Assembly (NCBI GenBank): GCA_965247485.1 | Contig: OZ252017.1 | Location: 837,664-901,663, forward strand | Length of the DNA stretch: 64,000 nt | Source: Dehalococcoidia bacterium | GTDB lineage: Bacteria > Chloroflexota > Dehalococcoidia > DSTF01 > WHTK01 | Direction of reading: 5' to 3' | Part shown: one piece after another, positions 17,684 to 30,229 of the stretch | Layout: each line of letters opens with the position of its first letter | Position numbering within the stretch: position 1 is the stretch's first letter | Notes under the pieces: generated by a model | Database searches by the model: none | The model's input: the letters and a program-made list of their open reading frames with translations, nothing else | Told to the model about the DNA's origin: nothing | Program-made: the position numbers and the translations under genes

Positions 17684-17796
17684 AATCCACCCCCAGCGAC
17701 CAACCACCATTTCAGAAAGTCGTCTTTGGCAGGCCGACAATGCGCCCCAGAGCCTTCCGCTAGCCGGGCTCACGAGAATGGTAGAATTCAGTCTAA

Positions 17797-17870
17797 GCGG
17801 CCAAGGTGTTGTGGTGGCATTCGTCCCTCCCACGGATGAGGCGGGGGTTCAATTCCCCCTGGCCGCTCCA
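17797..17870 (+). tRNA. tRNA, probably tRNA-Gly (anticodon CCC), 74 nt with encoded CCA; integration target of the downstream island
   Basis: Acceptor GCGGCCA/TGGCCGC, anticodon stem CGTCC/GGATG with loop CTCCCAC, T-arm GGGGG-TTCAATT-CCCCC, discriminator T, CCA; D-stem is weak (GTGT/GCAT), hence moderate confidence. Confidence 0.55.
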
Positions 17871-17871
17871 G
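17847..17871. repeat. attL core: 25-bp direct repeat GTTCAATTCCCCCTGGCCGCTCCAG (tRNA 3' end), identical copy at 30205-30229
   Basis: Exact 25/25 match between the two positions. Confidence 0.7.
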
Positions 17872-17897
17872 TCTTTTGCTTCGGTTTTGTATCTAAA

Positions 17898-17919
17898 AGA
17901 GGCCCGTGACAGGGCCTCT
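17898..17919 (-). terminator. perfect 8-bp stem-loop (AGAGGCCC-GTGACA-GGGCCTCT) between tRNA and integrase stop; possible integrase terminator (weak T-tract)
   Basis: Inverted repeat read directly; followed on minus strand by TTTAGAT. Confidence 0.3.
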
Positions 17920-17947
17920 CTAGGGTTCTGACCGCCTATCTGACCGC

Positions 17948-19075
17948 CTAACCGTGAAAAAGCTTATCCATGACGCTTACAGCTTGCTCCTGGGCGCCCT
18001 CGATCACGTGAGCGTAAATGCGCAATGTAGTCGAGATGTCGCTGTGGCCGAGCAGCTCCGAAACCACCTTGACCGGGACACCCTGAGAGAGCAGAACGGT
18101 CGCCGCGGTGTGTCTCAAATCGTGAAATCTCATTCGTGGTAGGCCTGCCTTGTCAAGTAACGGATGCAGCCCGCGGCTTAGGACGTGGCTATTGTCTAGG
18201 GGCTTGCCGAGCGCGTTTGTGAATGCGAGCCCGTATTCTTTCCACGCGGCGCCGGCAAGTTGGCGCTGACTGGGTTGATTAAGTCGATGGGTTTCTAGGG
18301 CCTCGCAAGCGGTTGCCGATAGCCAAACTGTGCGGCGTGACTTCTGAGTCTTCGGCTGGCCAAACAGAGGCTCGCCACCTCTCACTGTGGTCAACGTGCG
18401 GCTCACCTGAACCCGTTGGCGCTCGGTGTCTATGTCGCTCCACCGCAAAGCTTGGAGCTCGCCGAGTCGAAGACCTGACGTTAGTGCGAGGACAAAGAAC
18501 GCCTCAAGGGGATGACCTCTCGCGGCCTCGAGAAGCTGACGGGCATCCTCCGGGCCCAGGTGTCTTTGCTCGCCAGTGCTGCGCCGCGGCGGCGTGACGA
18601 GCGATGCGACATTTCGCCCAACAAGGCCCAGGCGCTCGGCATCACGCAAGGCGACATGGAGAACGCCATGACAATGCGCCACGGTGGTTGCACTGACTCG
18701 CCTTCCAATGGAGGCATAGGCTGCTCGCAAATCGGCCGGCTGAAGCTTGGAAAGGACGCGCCTTCCGAGTGCTGGCCCAAGATGTAGACGGCAAAGTGTG
18801 TTGTAGCGGCGCCACGTTTCCGGCCGTAAATCGCCCTGCTTGCCCTCTAGCCAGCTCGACAAGTACGCGCCAACCAAGAGTTTGTCACCTAGCAACGGGA
18901 GATTATCGTCCTGGCGCTTCTGGGCGTCCCGGAGCTTTTTGGAGACCTCAATGCGAGTCTTGCCGAATAGTGACCGGCGCCGCCGTTTTCCCGTGCTGGG
19001 CAGCGTTAGAGTGGCCTCCCAGCGGCCGTCTGCACGGAGACGGATGCTGCCTTCGCCCTTACCTCTCCGAGTCAT
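17948..19075 (-). CDS. int: tyrosine-type site-specific integrase
   Basis: C-terminal catalytic region HDLRHTAATVLLSQGVPVKVVSELLGHSDISTTLRIYAHV (R..H..R..Y); adjacent to tRNA and att repeat. Confidence 0.9.
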   Translation of the reverse strand: MTRRGKGEGSIRLRADGRWEATLTLPSTGKRRRRSLFGKTRIEVSKKLRDAQKRQDDNLPLLGDKLLVGAYLSSWLEGKQGDLRPETWRRYNTLCRLHLGPALGRRVLSKLQPADLRAAYASIGRRVSATTVAHCHGVLHVALRDAERLGLVGRNVASLVTPPRRSTGEQRHLGPEDARQLLEAARGHPLEAFFVLALTSGLRLGELQALRWSDIDTERQRVQVSRTLTTVRGGEPLFGQPKTQKSRRTVWLSATACEALETHRLNQPSQRQLAGAAWKEYGLAFTNALGKPLDNSHVLSRGLHPLLDKAGLPRMRFHDLRHTAATVLLSQGVPVKVVSELLGHSDISTTLRIYAHVIEGAQEQAVSVMDKLFHG

Positions 19076-19077
19076 CG

Positions 19078-19848
19078 TTAGCCTCCCTTTTTAATCATGG
19101 CAAGACGTGCCGCTATGTCATCTACATAGACCCCTCTAGGGGCCATTTTCCGGAGCCAGGAGTGAACAGGGCCCATTAACTCTGCGCCATATTTGATGTG
19201 TATAATCTCCGGATCTAGGATGTCTTCGTAAGTAAGTTGGGTGTCGGCTGTCTTTGGCTGGTAAGGGAAGGATTTCTCGCCAGACTGCGGCGGCCAAGTG
19301 CCACGAAACTCTTGGTGGACGCGAGCGTATGTTTCGTCGTCACGCCATAGAGCCCACCCCAAATATGCCTCCAAAGTCCGGCGGTCGGTCTCAGAAGCCC
19401 GCTCTGGCCTGCGCTCCCAAAACGCGAGGTCGACCGCCATCCACATACGGCTTTGGGGGCTGGCGTCGGGGGCAGCCTGCGTAACACGCCAAAACCAAAG
19501 CATGACCGGCAACAAAGGCCGTTTCAAACGATCTCCGATTGGGTTTAGTTCCCTTGCCAGATCGAAAAAGGCAGAGCTTGCTTCCCATGGTAAGGATCCG
19601 TCATCACTGAACGACTCGGGCCAGGTGACCACCTCTAGCCATCGACGTTCAGGGTTTGGTATCCGGGCCTCTCGGATGATGTCACTGACCGCACGAAGGC
19701 TGGGAGTCTTCTTACCCTTATACCCTTCCAGTCCCTCGGCGATCTTTGCTTGAATTAGCCGGCGCATAACCACGGCTCCCATCTGGCTATGGTTAACTGC
19801 GTTCACCTCAATCGTCCTACGGATTTGTGGATCGATTCTTGCTGGCAT
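19078..19848 (-). CDS. hypothetical protein, leftward gene next to int (position of a satellite/prophage master regulator)
   Basis: 256-aa ORF, Trp/Arg-rich, no recognisable motif. Confidence 0.45.
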   Translation of the reverse strand: MPARIDPQIRRTIEVNAVNHSQMGAVVMRRLIQAKIAEGLEGYKGKKTPSLRAVSDIIREARIPNPERRWLEVVTWPESFSDDGSLPWEASSAFFDLARELNPIGDRLKRPLLPVMLWFWRVTQAAPDASPQSRMWMAVDLAFWERRPERASETDRRTLEAYLGWALWRDDETYARVHQEFRGTWPPQSGEKSFPYQPKTADTQLTYEDILDPEIIHIKYGAELMGPVHSWLRKMAPRGVYVDDIAARLAMIKKGG

Positions 19849-19997
19849 TTGCCTACAAATCCTCCCTAGCTGCTATGTCCTTGGATTTTACTTCCATAGC
19901 ATTGCCATTCTGGCGCTTGACGACTGCCATACCAGGATTGATTCTACATCTCAGCAGAGGGCTGTCAAGGGATGGCAACCGCAAGAGGAGGCACCAA

Positions 19998-20192
19998 ATG
20001 GTAACCGAGACCACACGGCTAGCTTATCGAAGGATGGAAGCTGCAAAGGCCATCGATGTCAGCACCGACACCCTGGACAGATTGATTCAACGCGGAGAGA
20101 TCAAGTCTTTCAAGATCGGCGCCGCCATCTGCATCAGCGCTGACGAGCTCACACGTTTCATCAGAGAGCGCGAAGCGGCCGGCGGCGGCTAG
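19998..20192 (+). CDS. excisionase/AlpA-like helix-turn-helix DNA-binding protein
   Basis: AKAIDVSTDTLDRLIQRGEIKSFKIG HTH; RBS GGAGG upstream of ATG 19998; divergent from int. Confidence 0.55.
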   Translation: MVTETTRLAYRRMEAAKAIDVSTDTLDRLIQRGEIKSFKIGAAICISADELTRFIREREAAGGG

Positions 20193-20198
20193 CGCGAA

Positions 20199-20456
20199 GT
20201 GACGACCGCTGCCCATCATCCCAACTTCGTAGAACGCGACGAGATCTTGCGCCTACATCCAGGGCCGTGGAAAAAGAGCGGCGCCTGGCAGATGGCCTTC
20301 TGCCCAGTTCTAGCGCACGGCGACGGCCAGAAGCATGGCGGCAGGGGTGGCGAGTCCCTCGGGCTCTCAGACAAGGGCGTGCTCTCCTGCTTTGCTGGCT
20401 GTGCCTTTCGTGATGTCATGGCAGCGCTGCGGGCGGGTGATCAGGCGATTCGATGA
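20199..20456 (+). CDS. primase CHC2-type zinc-finger domain protein (separate small ORF preceding Toprim gene)
   Basis: CPVLAHGDGQKH...SCFAGC resembles the DnaG CHC2 zinc-binding motif; GTG start; stop overlaps next start. Confidence 0.5.
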   Translation: MTTAAHHPNFVERDEILRLHPGPWKKSGAWQMAFCPVLAHGDGQKHGGRGGESLGLSDKGVLSCFAGCAFRDVMAALRAGDQAIR

Positions 20457-22288
20457 CACCTTTGGGCGCTAAGCCGACGAACTGGTATGGCGAGACGATC
20501 TCGGGCTGGTATGGATATCAAGATGAAGCTGGCTCGGTTCGGTTTGACGTTGCGCGAACGCCCAGCAAAGAGTTTCCTGTCTATCACCCGGAAGGCACGA
20601 AATGGGCCAAGGGGTACGGCGGTCGGCGAATCCTCTACCGACTCCCCGAACTATTAGAGGCAGATCCAGCCGAGCCGGTTCTCTTATGCGAGGGCGAGAA
20701 GGACGCTGACCGGGCCCGGGCCGAAGGGTTCACCGCCACCACTACGCCAGGCGGCGCCTGGGCGGCTGATCATTGCGACCTCGGGCCGCTCGTTAATAGA
20801 ACTGTCGCGATCCTCCCAGACAACGACGAAGGGGGTGAAAACTATAGCTCTACGTTAACGGGCCTACTCGTTGGCAAGGCCGCCTCGATCAAGGTCATTG
20901 ACCTAACCGGCGTTCCGCCAAAAGGCGACGTTAGTGATTGGTTCGACGCCGGGCATGGCTCTGAGGAACTGAAGCAGTTGATCGGGCAACAAACGCCGGT
21001 AACACCCGTTTCTCCTCCGCAGCCTTCCACCTCGCAATCAACTACGTTGCTATTCCGGACGCCGCGACAAATCGCCCAACTCACACCCGAAACCCCAGAC
21101 GCGGTGGTCGCAGGCATCCTTGTAAGAGGCGCAATGACGGAAGTCAGCGCCAAAATCAAGACCGGCAAGACGACCTTCATGGGGCACTTAATCGCTGCTG
21201 TTCGCTCTGGGCACGACTTCTTAGGCTTGAAAACAAAACGCACAGCTTTTGTTGTGCTTACTGAGGAGCGAATTCAAACAATGCGAGCGGCCCTAGGGCG
21301 CGTCGGCCTTCTAGATGCGGACGATGTCCACATTCTCTCTCTGTACGACGCTGGCAAGCTCCCATGGCCCGACATAGTTGCCGAGGCGGAGAAATATGCC
21401 AAGGAGGTTGGCGCCGGCGTTATCGTCGTGGATACGCTTACTCGCTGGGCGCGCATTCCAAGCGATGATGAGAACAGCTCTGGCGCCGCGGCTGAAGCTA
21501 TTGAGCCCTTGGAGGCGGCAGCTGCTCATGGGTTCGCAATCCTTGTTATCCGTCACGACCGAAAAAGCGGAGGTGAGCTAGGAGACAGCGCTCGCGGGTC
21601 GTCAGCATTCGGTGGTGCTGCCGACATCATCCTCAACCTTCGCAGAGCGAATACCGAAGGCCATGAAAGTCGCCGGATATTACTAGGCGTCGGGCGCTTT
21701 GATGACGTTCCGTCTCAACTGACTATCGAGCTTCAAGCCGGCCGCTACGTAGTTCTTGGCGACACTGCCGCCATAGAACGTGACGAAACAAAGAGCCGAC
21801 TCCTGGACGTTTTGCCAGGTGTAAGCGGAGACCCTATTCGAGAGGATGATGTTCTTGCGCGGCTTGGCACTGAAGCAAAGAGATCAACTGTTCGGCGCGC
21901 CCTCAATGACCTGGTCGCGAATGCGTCCGTTGAACGAGTCTCCGGACTTGGGACGCGAGGCACTGCGAAAGGCTATCGCTTAGGCTCCCGTTACTCTACT
22001 GACCAGCCTATAGAGATGGACCCTGGTCAGAAGACTAACTCTCACGTTCCTGAAAGTAACGTGGATTACTTTAGTGACCAGCCCCATACCCCTGGTCAGA
22101 AACATAGTCCCCTACTCAACGGAAACTCTACTGACCAGCCCCCATTTCCTATAGGTGGTCAGTTGGGTAAGAACGACCTTTGCACAGAGCTTGGGTGTGA
22201 ACGTCCCGGTACTCACGCCAATCCAACCGATGGTGAGCTCGTTTGTCTGTATCACTTCACGCGGATGACCGCTGAGGTTGCGTCGTGA
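20453..22288 (+). CDS. Toprim-domain DNA primase fused to RecA-like (AAA_25/RepA-type) helicase domain; repeat-rich C-terminal tail
   Basis: Toprim motifs LCEGEKDADRA and ILPDNDEGG; Walker A KTGKTT, Walker B VIVVDTL; C-terminal STDQP/PGQK repeats and a Cys-rich tail. Confidence 0.8.
   Translation: MTPLGAKPTNWYGETISGWYGYQDEAGSVRFDVARTPSKEFPVYHPEGTKWAKGYGGRRILYRLPELLEADPAEPVLLCEGEKDADRARAEGFTATTTPGGAWAADHCDLGPLVNRTVAILPDNDEGGENYSSTLTGLLVGKAASIKVIDLTGVPPKGDVSDWFDAGHGSEELKQLIGQQTPVTPVSPPQPSTSQSTTLLFRTPRQIAQLTPETPDAVVAGILVRGAMTEVSAKIKTGKTTFMGHLIAAVRSGHDFLGLKTKRTAFVVLTEERIQTMRAALGRVGLLDADDVHILSLYDAGKLPWPDIVAEAEKYAKEVGAGVIVVDTLTRWARIPSDDENSSGAAAEAIEPLEAAAAHGFAILVIRHDRKSGGELGDSARGSSAFGGAADIILNLRRANTEGHESRRILLGVGRFDDVPSQLTIELQAGRYVVLGDTAAIERDETKSRLLDVLPGVSGDPIREDDVLARLGTEAKRSTVRRALNDLVANASVERVSGLGTRGTAKGYRLGSRYSTDQPIEMDPGQKTNSHVPESNVDYFSDQPHTPGQKHSPLLNGNSTDQPPFPIGGQLGKNDLCTELGCERPGTHANPTDGELVCLYHFTRMTAEVAS
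21994..22165. repeat. three imperfect copies of palindromic unit CT(A/G)(C/T)TGACCAGCC-N7-14-CCTGGTCAGAA inside the primase-helicase gene 3' end (candidate replication-origin iterons)
   Basis: CTGACCAG / CTGGTCAG inverted arms at 21998-22030, 22075-22100, 22131-22162. Confidence 0.5.
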
Positions 22289-22938
22289 ACCGCCAGGAGA
22301 GGCGCCGGGCGGGCAAAGCCGACAAGGGCCTCACAGAGAAGCTACGCGCTGAGCTACCCGGTATTCTCGGCTGGGCTGTGCGTGGGTGCCTTGAATGGCA
22401 ACGGCGTGGCCTCGAGCCGCCGGCCTCTATACAAGCAGCGACCGACGACTATCGCACTGAGAGCGATCCTTTAGCGGGCTTCCTCGCTGAGTACTGCGTT
22501 CTTGGTGACGGGCTGGCATCACCAGCCAACCCGCTGTACAAGGCCTACGCCCGGTGGGCGGCTGATCAAGGTTATCGCGACCGCGAATTGCTCACGAGCA
22601 CGGCATTTGGGCGGCTGGCGGGGAGTCGTTTCGACAGTGGCCGGAGCCGCGCCGGGAAGGTTTATTACGGCCTAGGTCTCTTAAATGCACAGCAAAGTGA
22701 TCTAAAGGTGACGGGTTTCACGTCTGACGACCCGTCACTTCCACTAAACCTTCCTATGTATTCACCTACGCGAGATTTGTTAGAAAACTCGTCACAACCC
22801 GTCACACCCGTCACAGAGGAAAACGAGCTCTGCACTCAGGCCAATTGCGACCTTCCGGGCACCCACGCCGAGCCAACTACTGGCGAACTTGTTTGCCTTG
22901 CCCACTTCCAGAAATTGGCTTCAGAGGTGACGTCGTGA
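22285..22938 (+). CDS. phage/plasmid primase P4-family C-terminal domain protein (D5/PriCT-like)
   Basis: Conserved pattern GILGWAVRGCLEWQRRGL...TDDYRTESDPLAGFLAEYC; ends with same Cys-rich tail as preceding gene. Confidence 0.6.
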   Translation: MNRQERRRAGKADKGLTEKLRAELPGILGWAVRGCLEWQRRGLEPPASIQAATDDYRTESDPLAGFLAEYCVLGDGLASPANPLYKAYARWAADQGYRDRELLTSTAFGRLAGSRFDSGRSRAGKVYYGLGLLNAQQSDLKVTGFTSDDPSLPLNLPMYSPTRDLLENSSQPVTPVTEENELCTQANCDLPGTHAEPTTGELVCLAHFQKLASEVTS

Positions 22939-23068
22939 ACCGTGAAAATCGGTGGCTCATGATGAGGGGGAAGGGGCCCTCGGATACTTCTCAGATATGG
23001 AAACGAACACCGCTACCCTACCACTCCTCGCACGCGGTCAGGTTTCAACCAAGGGGGGTTCAGCCTTA

Positions 23069-23545
23069 ATGGGTTCTCGCGGACCTTCGCCAAAGCCCAC
23101 AGCACTAAAGGCCTTGCATGGCACCGCTCGTCGCGACCGGAGCAATCCAAGCGAGCCTCAGCCGCAGGTCACCGCCGTTTCTTGTCCCGCGTTCCTAGAC
23201 TCCGCGGCGAAGGCAGAGTGGCGCCGGCTCATCCCGCACCTGGTCAAGTTGAAACTCATGAGCGATCTAGACCGGGGCCTCCTCGCTGCCTATTGCGCGG
23301 CCTGGAGTCGCTGGCGGAAGGCGGAGCTTGCGATCCAGAAGTTCGGTGAGGTCTTAGCGACGCCAAGCGGGTATATGCAGAAGAACCCTCACGTGACGAT
23401 TGCCAACGAATCAATCAGAACGCTCGAGAAACTGGCGGGGCACTTCGGTCTGTCGCCATCCACAAGGACGCGGGTTAGCGCCACACCAGAGGAGCAGGAG
23501 GACGATCCATTCGATGAATGGGAGCAGCGAAGGAGGTCGAGGTGA
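23069..23545 (+). CDS. terS: phage terminase small subunit, P27 family
   Basis: GPSPKPTALKALHGT...AKAEWRRLIPHLVKLKLMSDLDRGLLAAYCAAWSRW...NPHVTIANESIRTLEKLAGHFGLSPSTRTR matches the P27 TerS pattern; ATG 23069 preferred. Confidence 0.8.
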   Translation: MGSRGPSPKPTALKALHGTARRDRSNPSEPQPQVTAVSCPAFLDSAAKAEWRRLIPHLVKLKLMSDLDRGLLAAYCAAWSRWRKAELAIQKFGEVLATPSGYMQKNPHVTIANESIRTLEKLAGHFGLSPSTRTRVSATPEEQEDDPFDEWEQRRRSR

Positions 23546-23937
23546 TAAGGGCCATGATCGAACCGCTAACCGAAACCCCACCGCCGCCGGACTTCATCGG
23601 TAACCGAGATGCGGAGTGGGTGCGCGACTGGCACACACTCGCCGGAAAGCTCGTCGCATCGCGCACCTTGGCCGAGCTGGACCTAGTAATGCTCTGCCTG
23701 CTTATCGACGCTTGGCAGATCTACAGCCGCGGCCTTCGAGACATCGCCCGTTATCCAGAGCCAGAAGGCCTAAGGGAATCAATCGAAGAATGGCGGCTTC
23801 ACGCTCGCCAAGCCGCCAGTGAGTTTTTTCTTATACCTGAATCGCGAATCAATTTAGGAATCGTGGCCGACGCCGGCGGAGACAGCGAGTTATCGGCCCT
23901 TTTTCGAGAGAACAACGACGAATCAATCACGCAATAG
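23518..23937 (+). CDS. hypothetical protein with weak TerS-like helical pattern (second small-terminase-like/packaging-interference candidate)
   Basis: DAEWVRDWHTLAGKLVASRTLAELDLVMLCLLIDAWQIY mirrors the P27 A..EW..L...L..L.D...L...AW spacing. Confidence 0.35.
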   Translation: MGAAKEVEVIRAMIEPLTETPPPPDFIGNRDAEWVRDWHTLAGKLVASRTLAELDLVMLCLLIDAWQIYSRGLRDIARYPEPEGLRESIEEWRLHARQAASEFFLIPESRINLGIVADAGGDSELSALFRENNDESITQ

Positions 23938-24689
23938 CGGGCCGTAGGCCCGCCCAGTCAAGGGAGGAAAGACGATGGCAGCCACAGCGATTCAGGAAAT
24001 TAGCAAAAACGCGAAAGTCGACTACTGGCAGAACGATCATCCCTACGAGGTGGTTCGCATCGAGCCGTGAATTCCTGGACGAAATTGACTCATGATTATT
24101 CCTCGAGCATTTGAGGGCACATGGCTTGAGCCAGAGGAGCCTGCCTGGCGACCTGGAGACCCTTTCCCTGCGCCGTGGATACGTGAGGAATCGGAGAGAT
24201 GGTTAAGAAACTAATCAGCGAGAGCACCTCGCCAAGTTGAAGATGGTGACTGTTTTTGGTACGCCGAAAGCCCATAACTGGACAACTTACGCTCTGTTTA
24301 GAGTGAGTCTACAGCTGTGAATCGCCCGCCGCTTAGTAGCGTAGGCTTGGAAGGCAGATCGCACCGTGCGCTGTAGCAGCGTATCTAGGACCGTGAGCGA
24401 GAGCTGTCCAGTTATGGTGTGAAAGTTCTTGGGATTTTCTCCTACGCGATGCGGCGCCGTCCGGCGACCATGCTAAGAAGCCATGCAGTCAACGAAACCC
24501 TTGCCGACCCGCAGTTTGTCCGCGCCAATCCCAGGCTATCAATGCCTTAATCTCCACGGTCGGGACCTAAACTGTCCAAATTCTTACGGCCCTCGACCTG
24601 AACAGCGATGGCGCTGAGATTGACGAAGAGGACCGCCAATAGGCCACAGCAAGTCAGATTCGTGGTCGTGTATGAGGCGGGAAAGGATG

Positions 24690-24810
24690 GTTTGCCGGAA
24701 GGAGGCTCGAACCCCCAAGGCCTCGCGGGCGGCGGATTTTAAGTCCGCAGACGATAGGTTACTGACGTGTACTACCGTCCGCCCACGATGCGATTTGGTA
24801 GGCTTTCGGC
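24690..24810 (-). pseudogene. tRNA-Leu(TAA)-like remnant with ~30-nt insertion in the D-arm region (pseudo-tRNA)
   Basis: On minus strand: anticodon arm GCGGA-CTTAAAA-TCCGC, long variable arm, T-arm GGGGG-TTCGAGC-CTCCT, acceptor GCCGAAA/TTCCGGC with one mismatch; total about 120 nt, too long for an intact tRNA. Confidence 0.3.
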
Positions 24811-24981
24811 CGCCTACGTCCTGCGTCGGTTGAGGTTGTCCGTCCCGGTTGCTGTCTAATTTGCTGTCATTGCTCAATGCCGATGGCCCGCTACCGCTTG
24901 CCACCCACTTCATTCGGAGCGTCGCAAGTAGGTCGTTGTCGTTGCGACATTGCCTAGTATCAGCTGATCTCGTTCAGAAAG

Positions 24982-26034
24982 ATGCCGTACACGACAATGA
25001 TGAGAAGGCGGGGACGATACGGAGTCCCAATGCAGACGTACGGGTCGATCATCCCAGGCGGTCCAACCCTGGCTCGTCTCCTCCCAGAGGGAGCGCAGGA
25101 AGGCAGGGAGGAGCCACGACTATCACGTGAGGCGAAGGCGCGCCTCAGGGCTGTTGAGTGGCACAAGGATCACGGCGAGAAGGTGAGTCTGACGGCAAGA
25201 CGCTTTGGACGCAGCCGCTCAACCCTTTACTAGTGGCTAGAGTGCTACCGGCTCCGGGGTCCGCGGGGTCTGGAAGACCGCAGCCATAGGCCACACCAGG
25301 TCCGCAAGCCGACTTGGAGCCTAGAGTTCGAAGCAGCGGTGCTACGCCTGCGCCAAGACAATCCCGTCTGGGGCAAAGACAAGCTACAGCCGATCCTCAG
25401 ACGCGAAGGGGTCACTATCTCGGTCTCGATTGTGGGCCGCATCCTTAGCCGGCTCAGACGCCAAGGCAAACTGGGGCCTGCGAGTCTGAAGGACCCTTGC
25501 ATCGTCTCTCGGCCTCAGGTGCGGCCCTATGCCGTGCGTGAGCCCAAAGACTACGTCGTCAAGGCGCCGGGAGATCTGGTTCGGTGGACAGCGCCGACGT
25601 GCGCTGGACCGGTATTACCTGGCGCGTGATATTGTCAGCCGCTGGGACGTCTTGGGTGTCTACGGCCGCGCTACCGCCGGCACGGCGCGCGACTTCCTCG
25701 ATACGGTCATCGAGCGTATGCCGGGTCCGGTGAAGGCGATCCAGGTGGACGGTGGCTCTGAGTTCAGGGCCGAGTTTGAGGCCGCCTGTGAGCAGAAGGG
25801 GCTGCGGCTTTTTGTGCTGCCACCATGCTCCCCCAGGCTCAACGGCTGCGTGGAACGAGCCCAGCGCACCCACAAAGAGGAGTTTACCAGTTGGTTGACC
25901 CACCCGACTCGCTCAGCCAACTGAGAACCCAGCTGCTCCAACAGGAGCAGCGTTACAATACTTACCGGCCCCATCAGGCCCTTGGCCATCTAACGCCGCA
26001 AGAGTGGCTGCTAGCATTCACCGAGAGGAAGTAA
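24982..26034 (+). mobile_element. degraded IS481-family insertion sequence (transposase ORF split into at least 4 frames)
   Basis: HTH piece (24982-25233), LRLRQDNPVWGKDKLQPILRREG piece, DDE/rve core (DGGSEFRAEF...LPPCSPRLNGCVERAQRTHKEEF) and C-terminal YNTYRPHQALGHLTPQEWL piece in different frames. Confidence 0.7.
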
Positions 26035-26102
26035 GTGTCCGGCATCTACTGGACGAGTACAAGCACTTGCGCCTTCCAAACCGTCGCCCTACACTAATTG
26101 CA

Positions 26103-26129
26103 TTAGCACTCGCTTTAGCCGAGTGCTAA
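26103..26129. promoter_or_regulatory. CIRCE operator (HrcA binding site), perfect consensus TTAGCACTC-N9-GAGTGCTAA
   Basis: TTAGCACTC (26103-26111), 9-nt spacer, GAGTGCTAA (26121-26129); 40 bp upstream of groES. Confidence 0.85.
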
Positions 26130-26170
26130 ACTACGATAAAGCCTGAATTTATCCCCACGAGGAGGTCAGA

Positions 26171-26467
26171 ATAGCTTCGAGACTAATCCCTCTTGCCGAC
26201 AAGCTTGTTCTTAGGCCGATTGTCCAGGAGGAAGTCCTCTCCAGCGGAATCGTCATTCCAGACACCGCCAAAGAAAAGCCTAACCAGAGCGAAATCATCG
26301 CCGTGGGTCCAGGAAAGCGCGACGAGGACGGCAAAGTGATCATCCCGGAGGTCGTGATTGGTGACCGAGTGCTTTACGCCAAGTACACCGGCCAAGAGAT
26401 CAAGGTAGAAAATGAAGAGCTAATCGTTCTAGCGGAGAAAGATATCCTCTGCAAGGTCGAAGTCTAA
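26171..26467 (+). CDS. groES: co-chaperonin GroES (10 kDa chaperonin); apparent ATA start codon 5 nt after GGAGG
   Basis: Translation (I)ASRLIPLADKLVLRPIVQEE...GIVIPDTAKEKPNQSEIIAVGPGKRDEDGKVIIPEVVIGDRVLYAKYTGQEIKVENEELIVLAEKDILCKVEV; not in ORF track because no ATG/GTG/TTG start. Confidence 0.75.
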   Translation: MASRLIPLADKLVLRPIVQEEVLSSGIVIPDTAKEKPNQSEIIAVGPGKRDEDGKVIIPEVVIGDRVLYAKYTGQEIKVENEELIVLAEKDILCKVEV

Positions 26468-26491
26468 GTCCGCCCGCGTTAGGAGGGTCTA

Positions 26492-26551
26492 TTGGCAAAA
26501 CAAATCGTTTTTGATGAAGAGGCGCGTCGCTCACCGAAGGGTGAATCGTGA
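26492..26551 (+). pseudogene. groEL: groEL 5' remnant: 19 codons (L/M)AKQIVFDEEARRS... then unrelated sequence and stop
   Basis: AKQIVFDEEARR is the conserved GroEL N-terminus; RBS AGGAGGG upstream; TTG start; reading frame terminates at 26549-26551. Confidence 0.6.
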
Positions 26552-26769
26552 GTAATCACACAGGCCTTCAGTACGAAGGATACATTCAAGAAACAGGGTT
26601 CGGGATAAGTGAACTAGTACCGAGCGCCAACGAAACCATGGAAGACATTGTGTCGGCTTTAAAGGCTGCTGCAGAACGCCTCAAGCTTCACGTCCTTATT
26701 TGGGTGGATGAAGACAGGATTCTGCTTGCGTGTCCGCCTCCTGCCTTTGCCGGCATGCAGAGAAGTTAG
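26548..26769 (+). CDS. hypothetical small protein (73 aa), lower-GC cargo
   Basis: ORF only; non-repetitive composition. Confidence 0.25.
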   Translation: MSNHTGLQYEGYIQETGFGISELVPSANETMEDIVSALKAAAERLKLHVLIWVDEDRILLACPPPAFAGMQRS

Positions 26770-27728
26770 TAATCCTCAACGCGCCACCACACCTAAAGCC
26801 GAAAGGAGAAGAGGGCCTCCACGAGATGGCCCGCAGGATACGTTTTCGAAGCTGACGATTCGCGAGGCGTTCTGCGGACCTCTAGGAACCGGCAGGTTTT
26901 GCAACGATTTGGAAAATGAGGCTGGTTGCACTAAGACTTCGGCGCCAGACGACTTTCTTGCCTTGGCTCGATGCAGCAAGGGATGTCCGTCTCTTAATCG
27001 CTCGTTGAGAATCATCCTCGCTCAGGTCGATGGCTCCCCAATCGCCAACTTTAAGGGAACCTAAATATTCCAAGTACTCAGTGAGATCCTGGAGGTTAGT
27101 ATGCCTTCGCGTAAGATGACTAACTTCTGCATCAGACAGCTTCCTAAAATTTGGCATTGAAGTATCCCTCCAAGCTAATTCGTGGGTGCTCCACAGGAGC
27201 CCTATTGGATGCTAATCATAGGCCAAATTAGACGTCAAGCGTATACTCATTTTACTCCTGCTCTTTATTTCGACTATATTGTTATCGTAAGGGAATATGC
27301 ATTAGGCAGCAAGTGGGAAGCTCTCGCCGTGACAATGCATGATGCCCGCTCGTGGCACGAGACGCATAACGCCTAATGGCCCCTCCAGATTCCAAGTCAG
27401 GACCGAAACTGAAACAGCCGGTGGGGATCCAAGAGATCGGTCGGCGGCTGGCATTTGGGCCCCCGGGATACTTCCTAGGCTCGCTATCTGAGTGCGGGTG
27501 TTGGCCCGTAAAGAACATTCGCTAGCATCTGACCGCCACTGGTTTCTTCGAACCTCGTCAGACCGTTTGACTTGGAATCTTGAACCAACCTCTCAAACCA
27601 TCCAAGATATTGTCAGCAGAGTACGAGTCTTAGTCTTCGCTAACTGCATTCGCCAATGAGCTAAAAGAGAGATTCTTTGGTAGACTAATTCGAACCGTAT
27701 ATAGCCAATTGCAAAGACCGCTACCTAT

Positions 27729-28517
27729 TTGAGCAAGTTGAACTATATGCAGCAGACACGGAGAGTATTCGCTATGGAGCACCTTCTACCTTCTGAAGAC
27801 ACAGCCCGAGATCGACTATGTGTAGCGCTCGACTTGGCGGGAAGAGCTGACATTTCTCGGTGTATTTCAGAACTCGCAGATTTAGTCGGTTATTTTAAGG
27901 TAAATTCTGCATTTGCTCTGTACGGTCGTAGCCTGATCGAAGAAATATCCGAAGCTGGGGCCAAAGTTTTTCTCGATTTGAAACTCCATGACATTCCACA
28001 TGCTGTATCTGGATATGCAGATGCAGTCACTCGATTGGGAGTCGATTTAGTAACGGTTCACATCGCTGGCGGTACCCACATGCTTAAAGAACTTGTCAGA
28101 ACAGCAGATGACACAGCTAAAGAACTTGGAGTCAAGCGACCATTATTCATCGGTGTCACAGTCCTGACTAGTGTTGACAAGAGTATTCTCAACTCTGAGA
28201 TGAACATCAGGGGCGATGTTCGTCAGGAGGTGGCAAGAAGAGCCTTCTTAGCCGCGAAATCAGGACTCGATGGCATCGTCTGCTCTGCCGAAGACTTACA
28301 TTTCGTGAAGGGTGACCTACCCGAGGACTTCTTCTATGTAACACCGGGGATACGTGGTCTCAATGAGGAATCTCAAGACCATAAACGAGTTCTCTCCTAC
28401 GGGGAATCGGTTCAGGCAGGAGCAAGCTTGCTAGTTGTGGGCCGGGCGATCGTATCTGCTCCAGCCAGACGCGATGCGGCTTCCAAAATCCTGAGTGAAA
28501 TGACAGTGGAGGTCTGA
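27729..28517 (+). CDS. orotidine 5'-phosphate decarboxylase (PyrF type 1)-family protein, island cargo
   Basis: Hallmark motifs VALD...KVFLDLKLHDIPHAV, VTVH, VTVLTS, CSAED, VTPGIR, VVGRAI; lower GC than flanking chromosome. Confidence 0.8.
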   Translation: MSKLNYMQQTRRVFAMEHLLPSEDTARDRLCVALDLAGRADISRCISELADLVGYFKVNSAFALYGRSLIEEISEAGAKVFLDLKLHDIPHAVSGYADAVTRLGVDLVTVHIAGGTHMLKELVRTADDTAKELGVKRPLFIGVTVLTSVDKSILNSEMNIRGDVRQEVARRAFLAAKSGLDGIVCSAEDLHFVKGDLPEDFFYVTPGIRGLNEESQDHKRVLSYGESVQAGASLLVVGRAIVSAPARRDAASKILSEMTVEV

Positions 28518-28518
28518 G

Positions 28519-29097
28519 TTGGACTTCTCTCGCAAACCAGTCATTGGCTGCATCCACCTTCTGCCGACTCCAGGCTCTCCAGAATACGATGGTGACATGG
28601 CAAGGGTGTCCAATCTTGCACTCGAGGAAGCCGCCATTCTCAGAAGGTGCGGCGTCGACGCGCTCATTGTTGAGAACTTCCGGGACGGACCCTTCTTTCC
28701 AGAAGCTGTTCCAGTAGAGACGGTCGCCGCTATTTCAGGTGTCGCCCGCGAGATCGTGATGACAGGGGACGTACCCGTAGGTATAGCCGTTCTTCGCAAT
28801 GACGCCGAAGCCGCGATAGCGATAGCAACGGCAGTAGGCGCACAGTTCGTTCGTATAAACGTGCATATAGGCGCCGTGCTCGCGGAGCAAGGAATCGTTC
28901 AGGGCCGAAGTTTCGCGAGTATGCGATTACGGGCTAATCTACGCTCAAATGTTGCGATTTGGGCTGATGCGCGGGTCAAGCACTCCTTCCCTTTCGTATA
29001 TTCGAGTATCTCACAGGAGATTCGTGATCTAAACGGAAGAGCAGACGCAATTCAGCCCTGCGGTCCGCACTGGGCGCCTCTAAAGGCATCGCACTGA
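28519..29097 (+). CDS. BtpA/SgcQ-family (TIM-barrel) protein, C-terminally truncated relative to family (192 aa)
   Basis: PVIGCIHLLPTPGSPEY N-terminal motif and ADARVKH typical of BtpA; family members are usually about 260 aa; possible frameshift near 29065. Confidence 0.5.
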   Translation: MDFSRKPVIGCIHLLPTPGSPEYDGDMARVSNLALEEAAILRRCGVDALIVENFRDGPFFPEAVPVETVAAISGVAREIVMTGDVPVGIAVLRNDAEAAIAIATAVGAQFVRINVHIGAVLAEQGIVQGRSFASMRLRANLRSNVAIWADARVKHSFPFVYSSISQEIRDLNGRADAIQPCGPHWAPLKASH

Positions 29098-29279
29098 ATG
29101 AAGACGCCGGCATTGCGTTAAAGGCACTGCTGGAGGCCCCCTTAGCTCGTCAGGCCCTTGTACGCCGCCACGTCGAACTCCTCCACAATCGGGGAAGAAT
29201 GGCTGCCGGCAGTCCTGATTCTTTTAGAGGCTGAAGAGAAGCAGGCAGAGGCGGAGCGGCTGGACGCAGAGGGCTCGCT

Positions 29280-29585
29280 ATGACTGCTAGTCAACCCACC
29301 GAGACTTTCATCGTTCACGTACAGGACACTGAGACTATGCAGCTCCTCCAGTACCAGGTCGACTTCGGCGCGGCTACCGCAATTCGGGAATTATGCCGGG
29401 CATTGCAGGGTGTAGGCCGGGCTCAAGCCTCCGATGTGGGTGAGGCTCCCGTGACCACTCAGGAGCTTCTCCAGCTCCACGTTGAGGCTCTCCTGACGGT
29501 CCCCGAAGAATGGCTGGAATCGGCGCTGATCCAACTGGAGTCATGGGCCAAGATCGCCGGCGACTACCAGCCAGACACGGGCTAA
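29280..29585 (+). CDS. hypothetical acidic protein (101 aa)
   Basis: ORF with decent codon periodicity; no motif. Confidence 0.35.
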   Translation: MTASQPTETFIVHVQDTETMQLLQYQVDFGAATAIRELCRALQGVGRAQASDVGEAPVTTQELLQLHVEALLTVPEEWLESALIQLESWAKIAGDYQPDTG

Positions 29586-29647
29586 GGCCAGGCGTATAGT
29601 CGAAGGAATGACCGCGGGCGAAAACAAGACAGGCCTAATGAGACAAA

Positions 29648-29962
29648 ATGGACACGCCAAAGGAGTTCCCAGAAGAGCTGCTGCCATATCTGGAGCAGTT
29701 GGCGTCTGAGGACCGAGAGCGCCTGCTCGCAGAATTCGAGCGCGACATTCACGTAGAAGAGGCAAGGGCTCTAACGGGCGACAAGCTGGCGAACGAACTA
29801 GAGCGGCTGATAGCTATGGTGAAACTGCTCTCGCTCTTGAAGAAGCAAGAGGGCCCGGAAGCGCTCCGGTTGTTTAGTGATCGCGTCGGACTTTTACCGG
29901 GGCAGCTTGAGGCTCGGCTTAATGACCTCGACGACATTGAGCATATATGGGATGCGCAATAG
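29648..29962 (+). CDS. hypothetical acidic helical protein (104 aa)
   Basis: Glu/Leu-rich, predicted helical; no motif. Confidence 0.35.
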   Translation: MDTPKEFPEELLPYLEQLASEDRERLLAEFERDIHVEEARALTGDKLANELERLIAMVKLLSLLKKQEGPEALRLFSDRVGLLPGQLEARLNDLDDIEHIWDAQ

Positions 29963-30204
29963 GGCCCCCAGGGGACCTCGAAAACCTTAGAGCAAACGGC
30001 CTTGGAACCGCTGGCGAACCACTTTCCGGCTATTTATGAATTCCAAATGTTTTTAGAAAAGGTTTGCAGTGCCCACTTTCGCCACCTTTTGACCGCCTAT
30101 CTGACCGCCAGACGCAGCGGAACTATGCGGTCTCTAGCGGCCTAGATGGTAGAATCTGAATCTAGATGCGGCCCTTAGCGGTTTTGAGCGGAGCCTTAGA
30201 GGAA

Positions 30205-30229
30205 GTTCAATTCCCCCTGGCCGCTCCAG
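30205..30229. repeat. attR core: second copy of 25-bp direct repeat GTTCAATTCCCCCTGGCCGCTCCAG
   Basis: Exact match to 17847-17871. Confidence 0.7.

Follow-up and report, generated by a model that had tools for sequence, protein, structure and literature searches.

The 64-kb stretch of DNA analysed here, referred to below as the window, comes from a Dehalococcoidia bacterium of the phylum Chloroflexota (contig OZ252017.1, positions 837,664 to 901,663) and carries a discrete 12.4-kb element integrated at a tRNA gene. Judged by its gene content, this island is somewhat more likely than not a phage satellite resembling the phage-inducible chromosomal islands (PICIs), with an integrase, divergent regulators, a replication module and a small terminase (TerS) between its two attachment (att) sites.

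The ends of the island are marked by a 25-bp direct repeat, GTTCAATTCCCCCTGGCCGCTCCAG, with exact copies at 17847-17871 and 30205-30229 and nowhere else in the window (none expected over 100 shuffles), and no further copy of this att core was found there when up to three mismatches were allowed. ARAGORN and Rfam agree on a tRNA-Gly(CCC) gene on the plus strand at 17797-17870 (Rfam tRNA, 50.1 bits), and because this gene overlaps the left copy, the repeat is identified as the T-arm and acceptor 3' end of tRNA-Gly(CCC). This is what an earlier note on the same DNA had claimed, naming a tRNA search as the check. The tRNA gene stays intact in the occupied state, and the insertion between the repeats amounts to 12,358 bp. 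A repeat equal to a tRNA 3' end, a tyrosine integrase adjacent to it and an empty site in related genomes (described below) are together the features of a generic tRNA-integrating genomic island. Excision is predicted to produce a circle with the attP junction GCCTTAGAGGAA, core, TCTTTTGCTTCGG and to leave behind the attB junction GATGAGGCGGGG, core, ATTTTGCCCAACC. The features of the two ends and of the half of the island next to the tRNA gene are given here by position in the window, strand and description (ORF, open reading frame; HTH, helix-turn-helix; aa, amino acids).

17797-17870, plus: tRNA-Gly(CCC), the integration target (ARAGORN; Rfam)
17847-17871, plus: attL core, 25 bp, exact; the same as the core at the empty sites in L086 and L087
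17926-17948, plus: left arm-type repeat from a repeat search, two copies of TGACCGCC 12 bp apart, about 55 bp inside attL
17948-19075, minus: tyrosine integrase, 375 aa (Phage_integrase 3e-29; Phage_int_SAM_3; phrog_1 8e-74)
19078-19848, minus: all-alpha protein of 256 aa with an N-terminal HTH, in the position of a repressor; a conserved backbone gene of the element family
19941-19968, minus: sigma-70-like leftward promoter, TTGACA-16-TAGAAT, called from consensus matches only (11 of 12), in the divergent intergenic region
19998-20192, plus: excisionase/AlpA-like HTH protein, 64 aa from ATG 19998 (HTH_17 5e-7; phrog_66; TIGR01764 33.7 bits, above its cut-off)
20199-20456, plus: ORF of 85 aa with a Cys/His motif, positioned where homologues have a zinc finger fused to the primase; it overlaps the following gene by ATGA
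20453-22288, plus: primase-helicase, 611 aa, with Toprim, AAA_25 RecA-like helicase, winged HTH and Cys/His tail (AAA_25 6e-18; phrog_239 2e-25)
21993-22162, plus: three dyad units, TGACCAGCC-N8-15-(C)TGGTCAG, located in the 3'-terminal part of the helicase gene (none expected by chance)
22285-22938, plus: ORF of 217 aa, P4-family primase C-terminal/Pox_D5 domain with a Cys/His tail (Pox_D5 3e-5; phrog_6088 9e-28; TIGR01613 1.4e-17)
22952-23545, plus: TerS1, P27-family small terminase (Terminase_4 1e-28, 100 bits; phrog_83 3e-46; TIGR01558 84.5 bits against a cut-off of 45.6)
23518-23937, plus: TerS2, highly diverged TerS-like ORF of 139 aa (Terminase_4 25.7 bits against a cut-off of 24.7; phrog_83 3e-6)
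23938-24689, no strand: non-coding DNA that follows the terS genes and contains an inverted repeat of 23 bp (24272-24294 and 24395-24417)
30087-30109, plus: right arm-type repeat, two copies of TGACCGCC, about 95 bp before attR; conserved in a 1.1-kb relic at the same site in other genomes
30147-30204, plus: imitation of the tRNA-Gly promoter and 5' end, ATGGTAGAAT...CTA..GCGGCC, element-borne and directly before the core; also in the L084 relic
30205-30229, plus: attR core, exact over 25 bp and followed on the right by sequence homologous to that after the tRNA at empty sites

Packaging, replication and regulatory genes

For the packaging genes, the assignment of TerS1 to the P27 family, whose failure the earlier note had named as one of two findings that would speak against a satellite, stands above the curated cut-offs of both Pfam and NCBIfam; public annotation starts the gene at 22997, giving a protein of 182 aa. 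Homologues of TerS1 occur in 666 deposited phage records, the best hits listed being annotated as small terminase, and in IMG/VR contigs with an approximately 45% identical TerS this gene is followed by those for the large terminase (TerL), portal, S78 protease and HK97 capsid. The second TerS-like ORF of the earlier note is confirmed in part, as TerS2 just passes the Pfam threshold for Terminase_4 and fails that of TIGR01558 (20.1 bits), with 24% identity to TerS1 over 45 aa. In the stretch of about 750 bp after the two terS genes the longest ORF is 59 aa and no Rfam family was found; this would be the most likely place for a pac or cos packaging region. Outside the island, a P27 TerS (47% identical) ends a small block between truB and ABC-transporter genes at L091:4042-8498, without TerL and in the company of methyltransferase-like, DUF3489 and small ORFs, which may be another TerS-bearing islet.

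No capsid, portal, TerL, tail or lysis family was matched among the island ORFs in Pfam and PHROG scans of every sizeable ORF, no tblastn match was obtained in the window with TerL and portal queries from the phages with the most similar TerS, and no TerL, portal or capsid remnant was found in the island by hmmsearch with --max, filters off, at E<=5. The ORFs of at least 150 aa are only the integrase, the 256-aa protein, the primase-helicase, the 217-aa ORF, TerS1 and the cargo genes pyrF and btpA' described below. These searches bear out the earlier statement that capsid, portal, large terminase and tail genes are absent. Structural genes just beyond the att sites were the other finding that the earlier note had held against a satellite, and none is there: the element ends at the repeats, its flanks are housekeeping genes (GTP cyclohydrolase I, a nitroreductase and a PNPOx-family protein to the left; a LOG-family protein and a 3-hydroxyisobutyrate-type dehydrogenase to the right), and related genomes join these flanks at the tRNA.

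The replication module consists of three ORFs whose ATGA and GTGA overlaps look like translational coupling rather than decay. Its central protein, the primase-helicase, has further matches to GntR (Pfam, weak) and, over the Toprim part, to NF005477, and its gene is joined by the GTGA overlap to the 217-aa ORF, which matches the C-terminal ~130 residues of long phage primases. Homologues of the primase-helicase possess about 84 extra N-terminal residues with the motif CPxHxD...CxxGC; the 85-aa ORF gave no significant match with Pfam, PHROG, BLASTP or a profile of the zinc-finger N-termini of these homologues. In deposited phages the island primase-helicase has 14 partial matches only, and related proteins are encoded in IMG/VR contigs of 25-45 kb, sometimes directly before TerL and portal genes, as in contig L047. 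Phage contig L092 (42.8 kb) has the order Toprim/AAA_25 primase-helicase, HNH, P27 TerS, TerL, portal, ClpP and capsid; its primase-helicase was considered as a relative of the island protein and rejected, as tblastn gave no match and the two have domain architecture alone in common. The three dyad units in the helicase gene are candidate iterons of a replication origin. A paralogous gene, P0001, which is the second primase-helicase on the source contig, lacks exactly one dyad unit through a 24-aa deletion. The product of P0001 is 84% identical overall to the island protein, near-identical from residue ~216 and diverged before it, lacks the Toprim part and is mosaic relative to the island helicase; its presence apparently implies a second sibling element in the same genome. 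A sister genome encodes a 99% identical TerS and a 296-aa helicase fragment (P0489 and P0217). The 611-aa and 217-aa proteins share a Cys/His tail of about 45 residues (22165-22288 and 22800-22938; 45% identity, E 6e-15) with the pattern N-E/D-LCT...C..PGTHA.PT.GELVCL.HF, which may be a Zn-binding or partner-binding module.

For the regulatory region, the 256-aa ORF has no match in Pfam, PHROG or PADLOC. Its family, to which no Pfam family corresponds, comprises 453 cluster representatives at E<=1e-3, and a family hidden Markov model (HMM) matches the integrase-adjacent leftward ORF of the related elements L044 (1e-40), L007 (3e-14), L004 (9e-9) and L003 (4e-4). The AlphaFold2 model of the protein is all-alpha, with a predicted local distance difference test score (pLDDT) of 84, and in a structure comparison of this model the N-terminal HTH resembled the DNA-binding domains of Pax5, Tc3 and TnsB; beyond the HTH nothing among solved structures matched. 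A divergent region of 149 bp separates this ORF from the HTH gene, which probably starts at ATG 19998 with the ribosome-binding site AAGAGGAGG upstream. Neither the excisionase-family HTH protein nor the 256-aa protein matches Phage_AlpA or a known Stl.

The cis-acting sites at the two ends appear to be matched. Against an expectation of 3.0, the window contains 11 copies of TGACCGCC, paired copies are confined to the two island ends, and sibling L007 has an analogous repeat near each of its own ends; the pairs are probable arm-binding sites of the integrase. Directly before attR, the right end (30147-30204, compared with 17779-17802) reproduces two motifs of the tRNA gene, the -10-like TAGAAT and the initial GCGGCC, the body that follows being shortened and diverged, a similarity that was read by eye from these sequences and the L084 relic. 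Because these two motifs precede the core, attP in the excised circle would resemble a pseudo-tRNA gene with its own promoter.

Most of what the earlier note had made out in this half of the island from the letters alone was borne out, namely the leftward tyrosine integrase, the leftward 256-aa ORF of unknown nature in the position of a repressor, the rightward AlpA/Xis-like HTH, the Toprim plus RecA-like helicase and the P4-family primase C-terminal domain. Its CHC2 zinc-finger ORF did not hold up, as the 85-aa ORF has the motif only and no significant similarity to the zinc-finger N-termini of the homologues.

Distal half, integration site and related elements

The distal ~6 kb of the island is passenger or decayed DNA outside the machinery described above, and its features are as follows.

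24690-24748, minus: tRNA-Leu(TAA) fragment that spans the anticodon stem through the 3' end, as aligned with the gene for this tRNA in L004
24982-26034, plus: transposase pseudogene in at least four frames (weak HTH_28, HTH_32 and DDE_3; transposase PHROGs)
27729-28517, plus: cargo gene pyrF, orotidine-5'-phosphate decarboxylase (OMPdecase 2e-44; NF001273 206.6 bits against a cut-off of 193; GC content 45-50%)
28519-29097, plus: cargo gene btpA', a truncated BtpA/SgcQ-family gene with 175 of 257 profile positions, directly after pyrF
29280-29962, plus: two small acidic ORFs of 101 and 104 aa, in an accessory position before attR

The three features that the earlier note had placed here fared differently. 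The tRNA-Leu-like remnant is borne out by the alignment, with 17 of 17 anticodon-arm positions identical and the T-arm present, though an Rfam search of 23.8-27.8 kb found neither this remnant nor any other RNA element. The IS481 remnant is indeed a broken transposase, of which the weak HTH_28, HTH_32 and DDE_3 matches do not fix the family as IS481. The lower-GC cargo is evident from the fall in GC content to 45-52% at 26-28.2 kb; pyrF is intact and passes the NCBIfam equivalog cut-off, and the 101-aa and 104-aa ORFs gave no match with PHROG, PADLOC or NCBIfam. As the tRNA-Leu fragment has the extent of the 43-51-bp att cores of sibling elements, one of which (L004) sits at tRNA-Leu(TAA), it is best read as a putative relic att site from an earlier recombination with a sibling. 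The fragment is inverted relative to tRNA-Gly.

The occupancy of the site was examined in other assemblies by using GTP cyclohydrolase (FolE) as a handle for retrieving the same neighbourhood. In two related species (L086/L087 and L088; FolE identity 87-88%) the PNPOx gene, tRNA-Gly(CCC) and the LOG gene are adjacent, the gap amounts to 207-270 bp, and the sequence after the tRNA is homologous to the right flank of the window. Compared in this way, the arrangement in L086, L087 and L088 corresponds to an empty attB, which the earlier note had proposed to look for in other genomes. In three further assemblies (L084, L093 and L094) the flanks are 99.7-99.9% identical to those of the window and the site that corresponds to 17847-30229 holds only a 1,084-bp segment without an integrase (L084:7728-8836; L093:8786-9894; L094:8786-9894), bounded by two copies of the same tRNA-Gly core and containing one 62-aa ORF. 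The last ~117 bp of this segment, with a TGACCGCC-type arm repeat and a pseudo-tRNA end, are ~81% identical to 30088-30204 of the window, and the remainder is unrelated to the island; the segment therefore derives from a sibling element and is not a deletion product of the island. It may be either a relic of that sibling or a non-autonomous miniature element that a sibling integrase could mobilise. Since genomes with near-identical flanks carry only this relic, the island is strain-specific and recently gained, and cluster look-ups agree: the island integrase forms a single-member cluster with no relative at 90% identity in other assemblies, and the clusters of the flanking proteins have five members each. 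Among named sequences, the host proteins are closest to those of Dehalococcoidia metagenome-assembled genomes. A Logan contig (L085, ERR14231557_338065) that is 100% identical to the left flank ends within the tRNA at the equivalent of window position 17851, 5 bp into the core; this stop fits branching of the assembly graph at the repeat, through repeated cores or a mixture of occupied and alternative states.

Homologues of the primase-helicase number 1069 at E<=1e-10, the named ones being mostly from Chloroflexota, and a scan of one genome per species gave 72 primase-helicase loci, in which an integrase is commonly adjacent. Four relatives, from other Chloroflexota, could be bounded by exact or near-exact att repeats, and their size, target, repeat and phage-type genes are as follows.

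L002: 7,843 bp, tRNA-Lys, att 43 bp, TerS of phrog_4102/309
L007: 9,405 bp, tRNA-Thr, att 45 bp, TerS of Terminase_2/phrog_51
L044: 9,328 bp, tRNA-Gln, att 51 bp, virion structural protein phrog_1731
L064: 10,093 bp, tRNA-Glu, att 45 bp, weak P27-like TerS and ClpP-like protease

All four have a common gene order of a leftward integrase, a leftward ORF of 210-370 aa, a small rightward ORF in the position of the island HTH gene and the primase-helicase, with the TerS or virion-protein gene two to three genes after the helicase. A TerS-type gene is thus present in three of the four, from three different families and with one weak match (L064), the non-P27 TerS genes having been detected with PHROGs only; no ORF in the four relatives is similar to, or large enough for, TerL, portal or capsid. 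In another sibling, from a Dehalococcoidia metagenome-assembled genome and located at tRNA-Leu(TAA), an IS21-type transposase/IstB pair lies directly after the primase-helicase (L004/L001:11618-13890), in the slot where other siblings carry terS.

Satellite, defective prophage or autonomous replicon

Taken together, the evidence makes it somewhat probable that the island is a PICI-like phage satellite, as the earlier note had proposed, and the results on terminase homology and on the flanks support that proposal. In such a life cycle, the leftward operon of the 256-aa HTH protein and the integrase would keep the element quiescent and integrated. When a helper of the HK97-like type (HNH/P27-TerS/TerL) infects or is induced, the rightward operon would be expressed, and the integrase and excisionase would recombine attL with attR by way of the paired TGACCGCC arm sites. 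The primase-helicase and the P4-type C-terminal ORF would then replicate the circle, with the dyad iterons of the helicase gene as origin, TerS1 would recognise a site on the island, probably in the 750-bp non-coding stretch, and recruit the TerL (and HNH) of the helper, and the island DNA would be packaged into helper capsids. TerS2 may interfere with the helper TerS. The proposed recruitment of the helper TerL, and probably of its HNH protein, by the island TerS is the mechanism of pac-type staphylococcal pathogenicity islands (SaPIs) and PICIs.

Several observations weigh against this interpretation. No helper prophage was found in the window, and exact scans with the right-end/att-core sequence, as attR or as circular attP, retrieved nothing from IMG/VR or JGI metagenomes. 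None of Pfam, PHROG, NCBIfam and PADLOC revealed a gene for capsid morphogenesis or packaging interference. The replication module is spread over three ORFs, the 85-aa one being without significant similarity, and roughly half of the 12.4 kb consists of DNA that is decayed or foreign. Among relatives, a P27 TerS is absent from all 74 primase-helicase loci (tblastn and TerS HMM), and 91 ORFs downstream in related loci included only few TerS or HNH matches, so TerS is not universal. Lastly, the phages or prophages L047, L097, L098 and L092 have a primase-helicase directly beside TerL and portal, and because phages place related primase-helicases there, the left arm of the island is collinear with a prophage arm.

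This collinearity leads to the main rival, which we regard as unlikely, that the island is a defective prophage: a small temperate phage of the L092, L097 and L098 type (integrase, primase-helicase, HNH/TerS, TerL, portal, protease and HK97 capsid) at tRNA-Gly would have lost everything downstream of terS by a deletion accompanied by insertion sequence (IS) activity and the insertion of foreign DNA, the leftover genes having no satellite lifestyle. Phage contigs in the same order, L047 among them, with the primase-helicase directly before the packaging genes, would fit such an origin, as would the tRNA-Leu relic and broken transposase exactly at the junction after terS, the truncation of btpA in the distal half, and the paralogous primase-helicases in sibling genomes that are truncated to 430 and 296 aa. 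A decaying prophage would be less easily reconciled with the failure of unfiltered profile searches at E<=5 to turn up any piece of TerL, portal or capsid, or with a full set of undamaged parts (integrase, att cores at both ends, arm sites, regulators, primase-helicase and TerS). Being strain-specific among genomes with 99.8% identical flanks, the island arrived recently and already in its present form, and four relatives at other tRNAs, of 7.8-10.1 kb with att repeats of 43-51 bp and at most two phage-type genes, are hard to explain by independent random decay. The satellite reading is preferred to a deleted prophage because of these missing remnants, intact ends, recent arrival and the same reduced design at other tRNAs.

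It is distinctly improbable, in our estimate, that the island is an autonomous integrative replicon, a plasmid-like or tycheposon-like shuttle that would spread by a route other than capsids, such as vesicles or transformation, with terS as captured phage DNA without a role or as an anti-phage decoy only. The cargo (pyrF and btpA') would suit such an element, most members of the integrase plus primase-helicase family have no recognisable packaging gene, and viral fractions yielded no copies of the cargo tycheposons, which share their backbone with the PICI-like ones (bioRxiv 10.1101/2020.12.28.424599). A terS without function is at odds with a TerS1 that is full length, above curated cut-offs and 99-100% conserved in two genomes in which the neighbouring primase-helicase is mosaic, and three unrelated TerS families in the same slot of siblings argue for selection on function. 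A long shot is that the island is composite and not one functional unit, in that a 6-kb element from int to terS was joined to an unrelated 6-kb block by tandem integration or recombination. An att-like relic of tRNA-Leu(TAA) at the junction, the 45-52% GC content at 26-28.2 kb with a dead transposase there, and the size of the bounded siblings, only 7.8-10.1 kb, would all accord with this history; the window has just two tRNA-Gly cores at up to three mismatches, and the arm repeat and pseudo-tRNA end beside attR match the right end of the family in the conspecific relics. Given these matched ends, the present unit would therefore excise as 12.4 kb, and a composite origin is compatible with a satellite rather than opposed to it.

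Beyond the single island, we tentatively suggest, and with more doubt than confidence, that these elements form an undescribed lineage of Chloroflexota satellites in which the backbone is constant and the terS slot swappable, with a new family of regulators, an end that mimics a tRNA gene and derivatives of miniature size. The backbone would comprise a tRNA-specific tyrosine integrase, the 256-aa HTH family, an excisionase and the Toprim/AAA_25 primase-helicase. The slot after the helicase would accept plug-in genes matched to helpers, namely a TerS from any one of three or more unrelated families, or else a ClpP-type protease or a virion protein, and the 1.1-kb integrase-less derivatives, keeping att cores and arm sites, would be mobilisable in trans. 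Elements of this kind are already known in many phyla from the SatelliteFinder, tycheposon and virion-encapsidated integrative mobile element (VEIME) work; a full-text literature search found no paper on phage satellites in Chloroflexi/Chloroflexota, the work on IME1 apart. If these islands are real satellites, satellite parasitism would reach into a large phylum whose members are mostly uncultured and which matters for soils, sediments and bioremediation, and the satellite-borne TerS could help to identify the phages of these hosts. The family would then offer a clear case from nature of the retargeting of helpers, with terS exchanged while the backbone stays constant, and the conserved 256-aa HTH protein might represent a new class of master regulators of satellites. 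Should the island prove to be a deleted prophage, there would be nothing unusual about it.

Comparison with known satellites

Several known kinds of element were compared with the island and set aside. The structural or lysis genes of a prophage, or remnants of them, were not found between the att sites with TerL, portal and capsid profiles (E<=5) or as structural PHROG matches, a result that complete loss by deletion could also explain; a defence island was rejected, the PADLOC search being empty, and so was a capsid-forming PICI (cfPICI), as no capsid, portal, protease, head-tail connectors or terL of its own could be detected. The IME1 elements of Dehalococcoides resemble the island in their Chloroflexota hosts, integration downstream of a tRNA, tyrosine recombinase as first gene and primase-helicase. 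At one time they were put forward as PICIs; more recently it has been argued that they are autonomous viruses of filamentous type, 21-28 kb in size, which lack a terminase and have a conserved virion module with a pI-like ATPase (Nesbo et al. 2026, bioRxiv 10.64898/2026.09.15.751708), typical traits being a size of ~23 kb, a large metallophosphoesterase-like coding sequence and a terminal Cro/C1 repressor (bioRxiv 10.64898/2026.09.15.751708). The island, at 12.4 kb and with none of the IME1 hallmark genes, was not assigned to them.

The likeness to satellite P4 lies in a size of ~11 kb, integration at a tRNA site, an integrase next to the tRNA and the match of the 217-aa ORF to TIGR01613, 'primase, P4 family'. 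P4 has no terS and relies on the cos site of its helper, and its fused primase-helicase with a C-terminal origin-binding domain has a helicase of another type than that of the island. A P4-like satellite was rejected, as only int, an HTH protein and a partial alpha-like C-terminal domain represent the seven core components (psu-delta-sid, epsilon, alpha, alpA, int), and no sid, psu, delta or epsilon was recognised, the Pfam and PHROG scans being without matches to such capsid-related functions.

For PICIs, the function-level definition used by SatelliteFinder (PMC10085698) was applied. The integrase lies at the element end, adjacent to attL; candidates for the regulation module are an excisionase-family HTH_17 protein (TIGR01764 above cut-off) and the divergent 256-aa HTH protein, with no Phage_AlpA/Stl match; a primase-replicase is present by function (phrog_239 and the P4-type ORF), its protein family differing from the Pri/Rep of SaPIs; a small terminase is present (Terminase_4, TIGR01558 and phrog_83); and tail, holin, portal and connector-adaptor genes are absent. 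In terms of function, and with these candidate regulators counted, the island would thus have four of the five PICI core components and none of the forbidden ones, and would correspond to 'Type B', whose members are also without a gene for capsid morphogenesis or packaging interference (de Sousa et al. 2023, PMC10085698). As in PICIs, of which several elements per genome have been reported (PMC10085698), a paralogous copy is present in the genome. Further points of likeness to PICIs and SaPIs are the end integrase with att repeats, the divergent regulatory region, the excisionase/AlpA-type HTH, the island's own primase-replicase followed by terS, the accessory genes after terS and a size of ~10 kb. 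The replication genes differ, SaPIs using a Pri/Rep pair and the island a Toprim plus AAA_25 (T7 gp4-like) primase-helicase with a detached P4-type C-terminal domain. The island also differs in an integrase-adjacent regulator from an unannotated family, with no capsid-morphogenesis or Ppi-type gene recognised, in its integration into a tRNA, in its host phylum, Chloroflexota, and in its P27-family TerS, a type that in phages is linked to packaging dependent on HNH according to the account of Kala et al. (2014) given in PMC9618062.

Close architectural parallels appear in elements of environmental bacteria. PICI-like tycheposons of Prochlorococcus and other marine bacteria also have a tRNA-targeting tyrosine recombinase, xis and a primase/helicase, a single packaging gene (terS or the major capsid protein gene) as the sole virion-related gene, and cargo modules; partial tRNAs and degraded elements occur within the island as in them, the choice of tRNA depends on the integrase, and different siblings occupy different tRNAs. 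Tycheposons were defined in cyanobacteria, as a single network of shared genes (Hackl et al., bioRxiv 10.1101/2020.12.28.424599); the host phylum is another one, and the likeness described here is one of architecture. VEIMEs, environmental satellites with tyrosine integrases, primase/helicases and AlpA or excisionases (Eppley et al. 2022, PMC9618062), are defined by virion-packaged concatemers, whereas the island is known here from sequence alone. Their variable modules carry TerS, HNH endonucleases or serine proteases, the TerS being closest to that of co-occurring phages (PMC9618062), and the siblings of the island show the same variable slot, occupied by TerS of different families, a ClpP-like protease or HNH.

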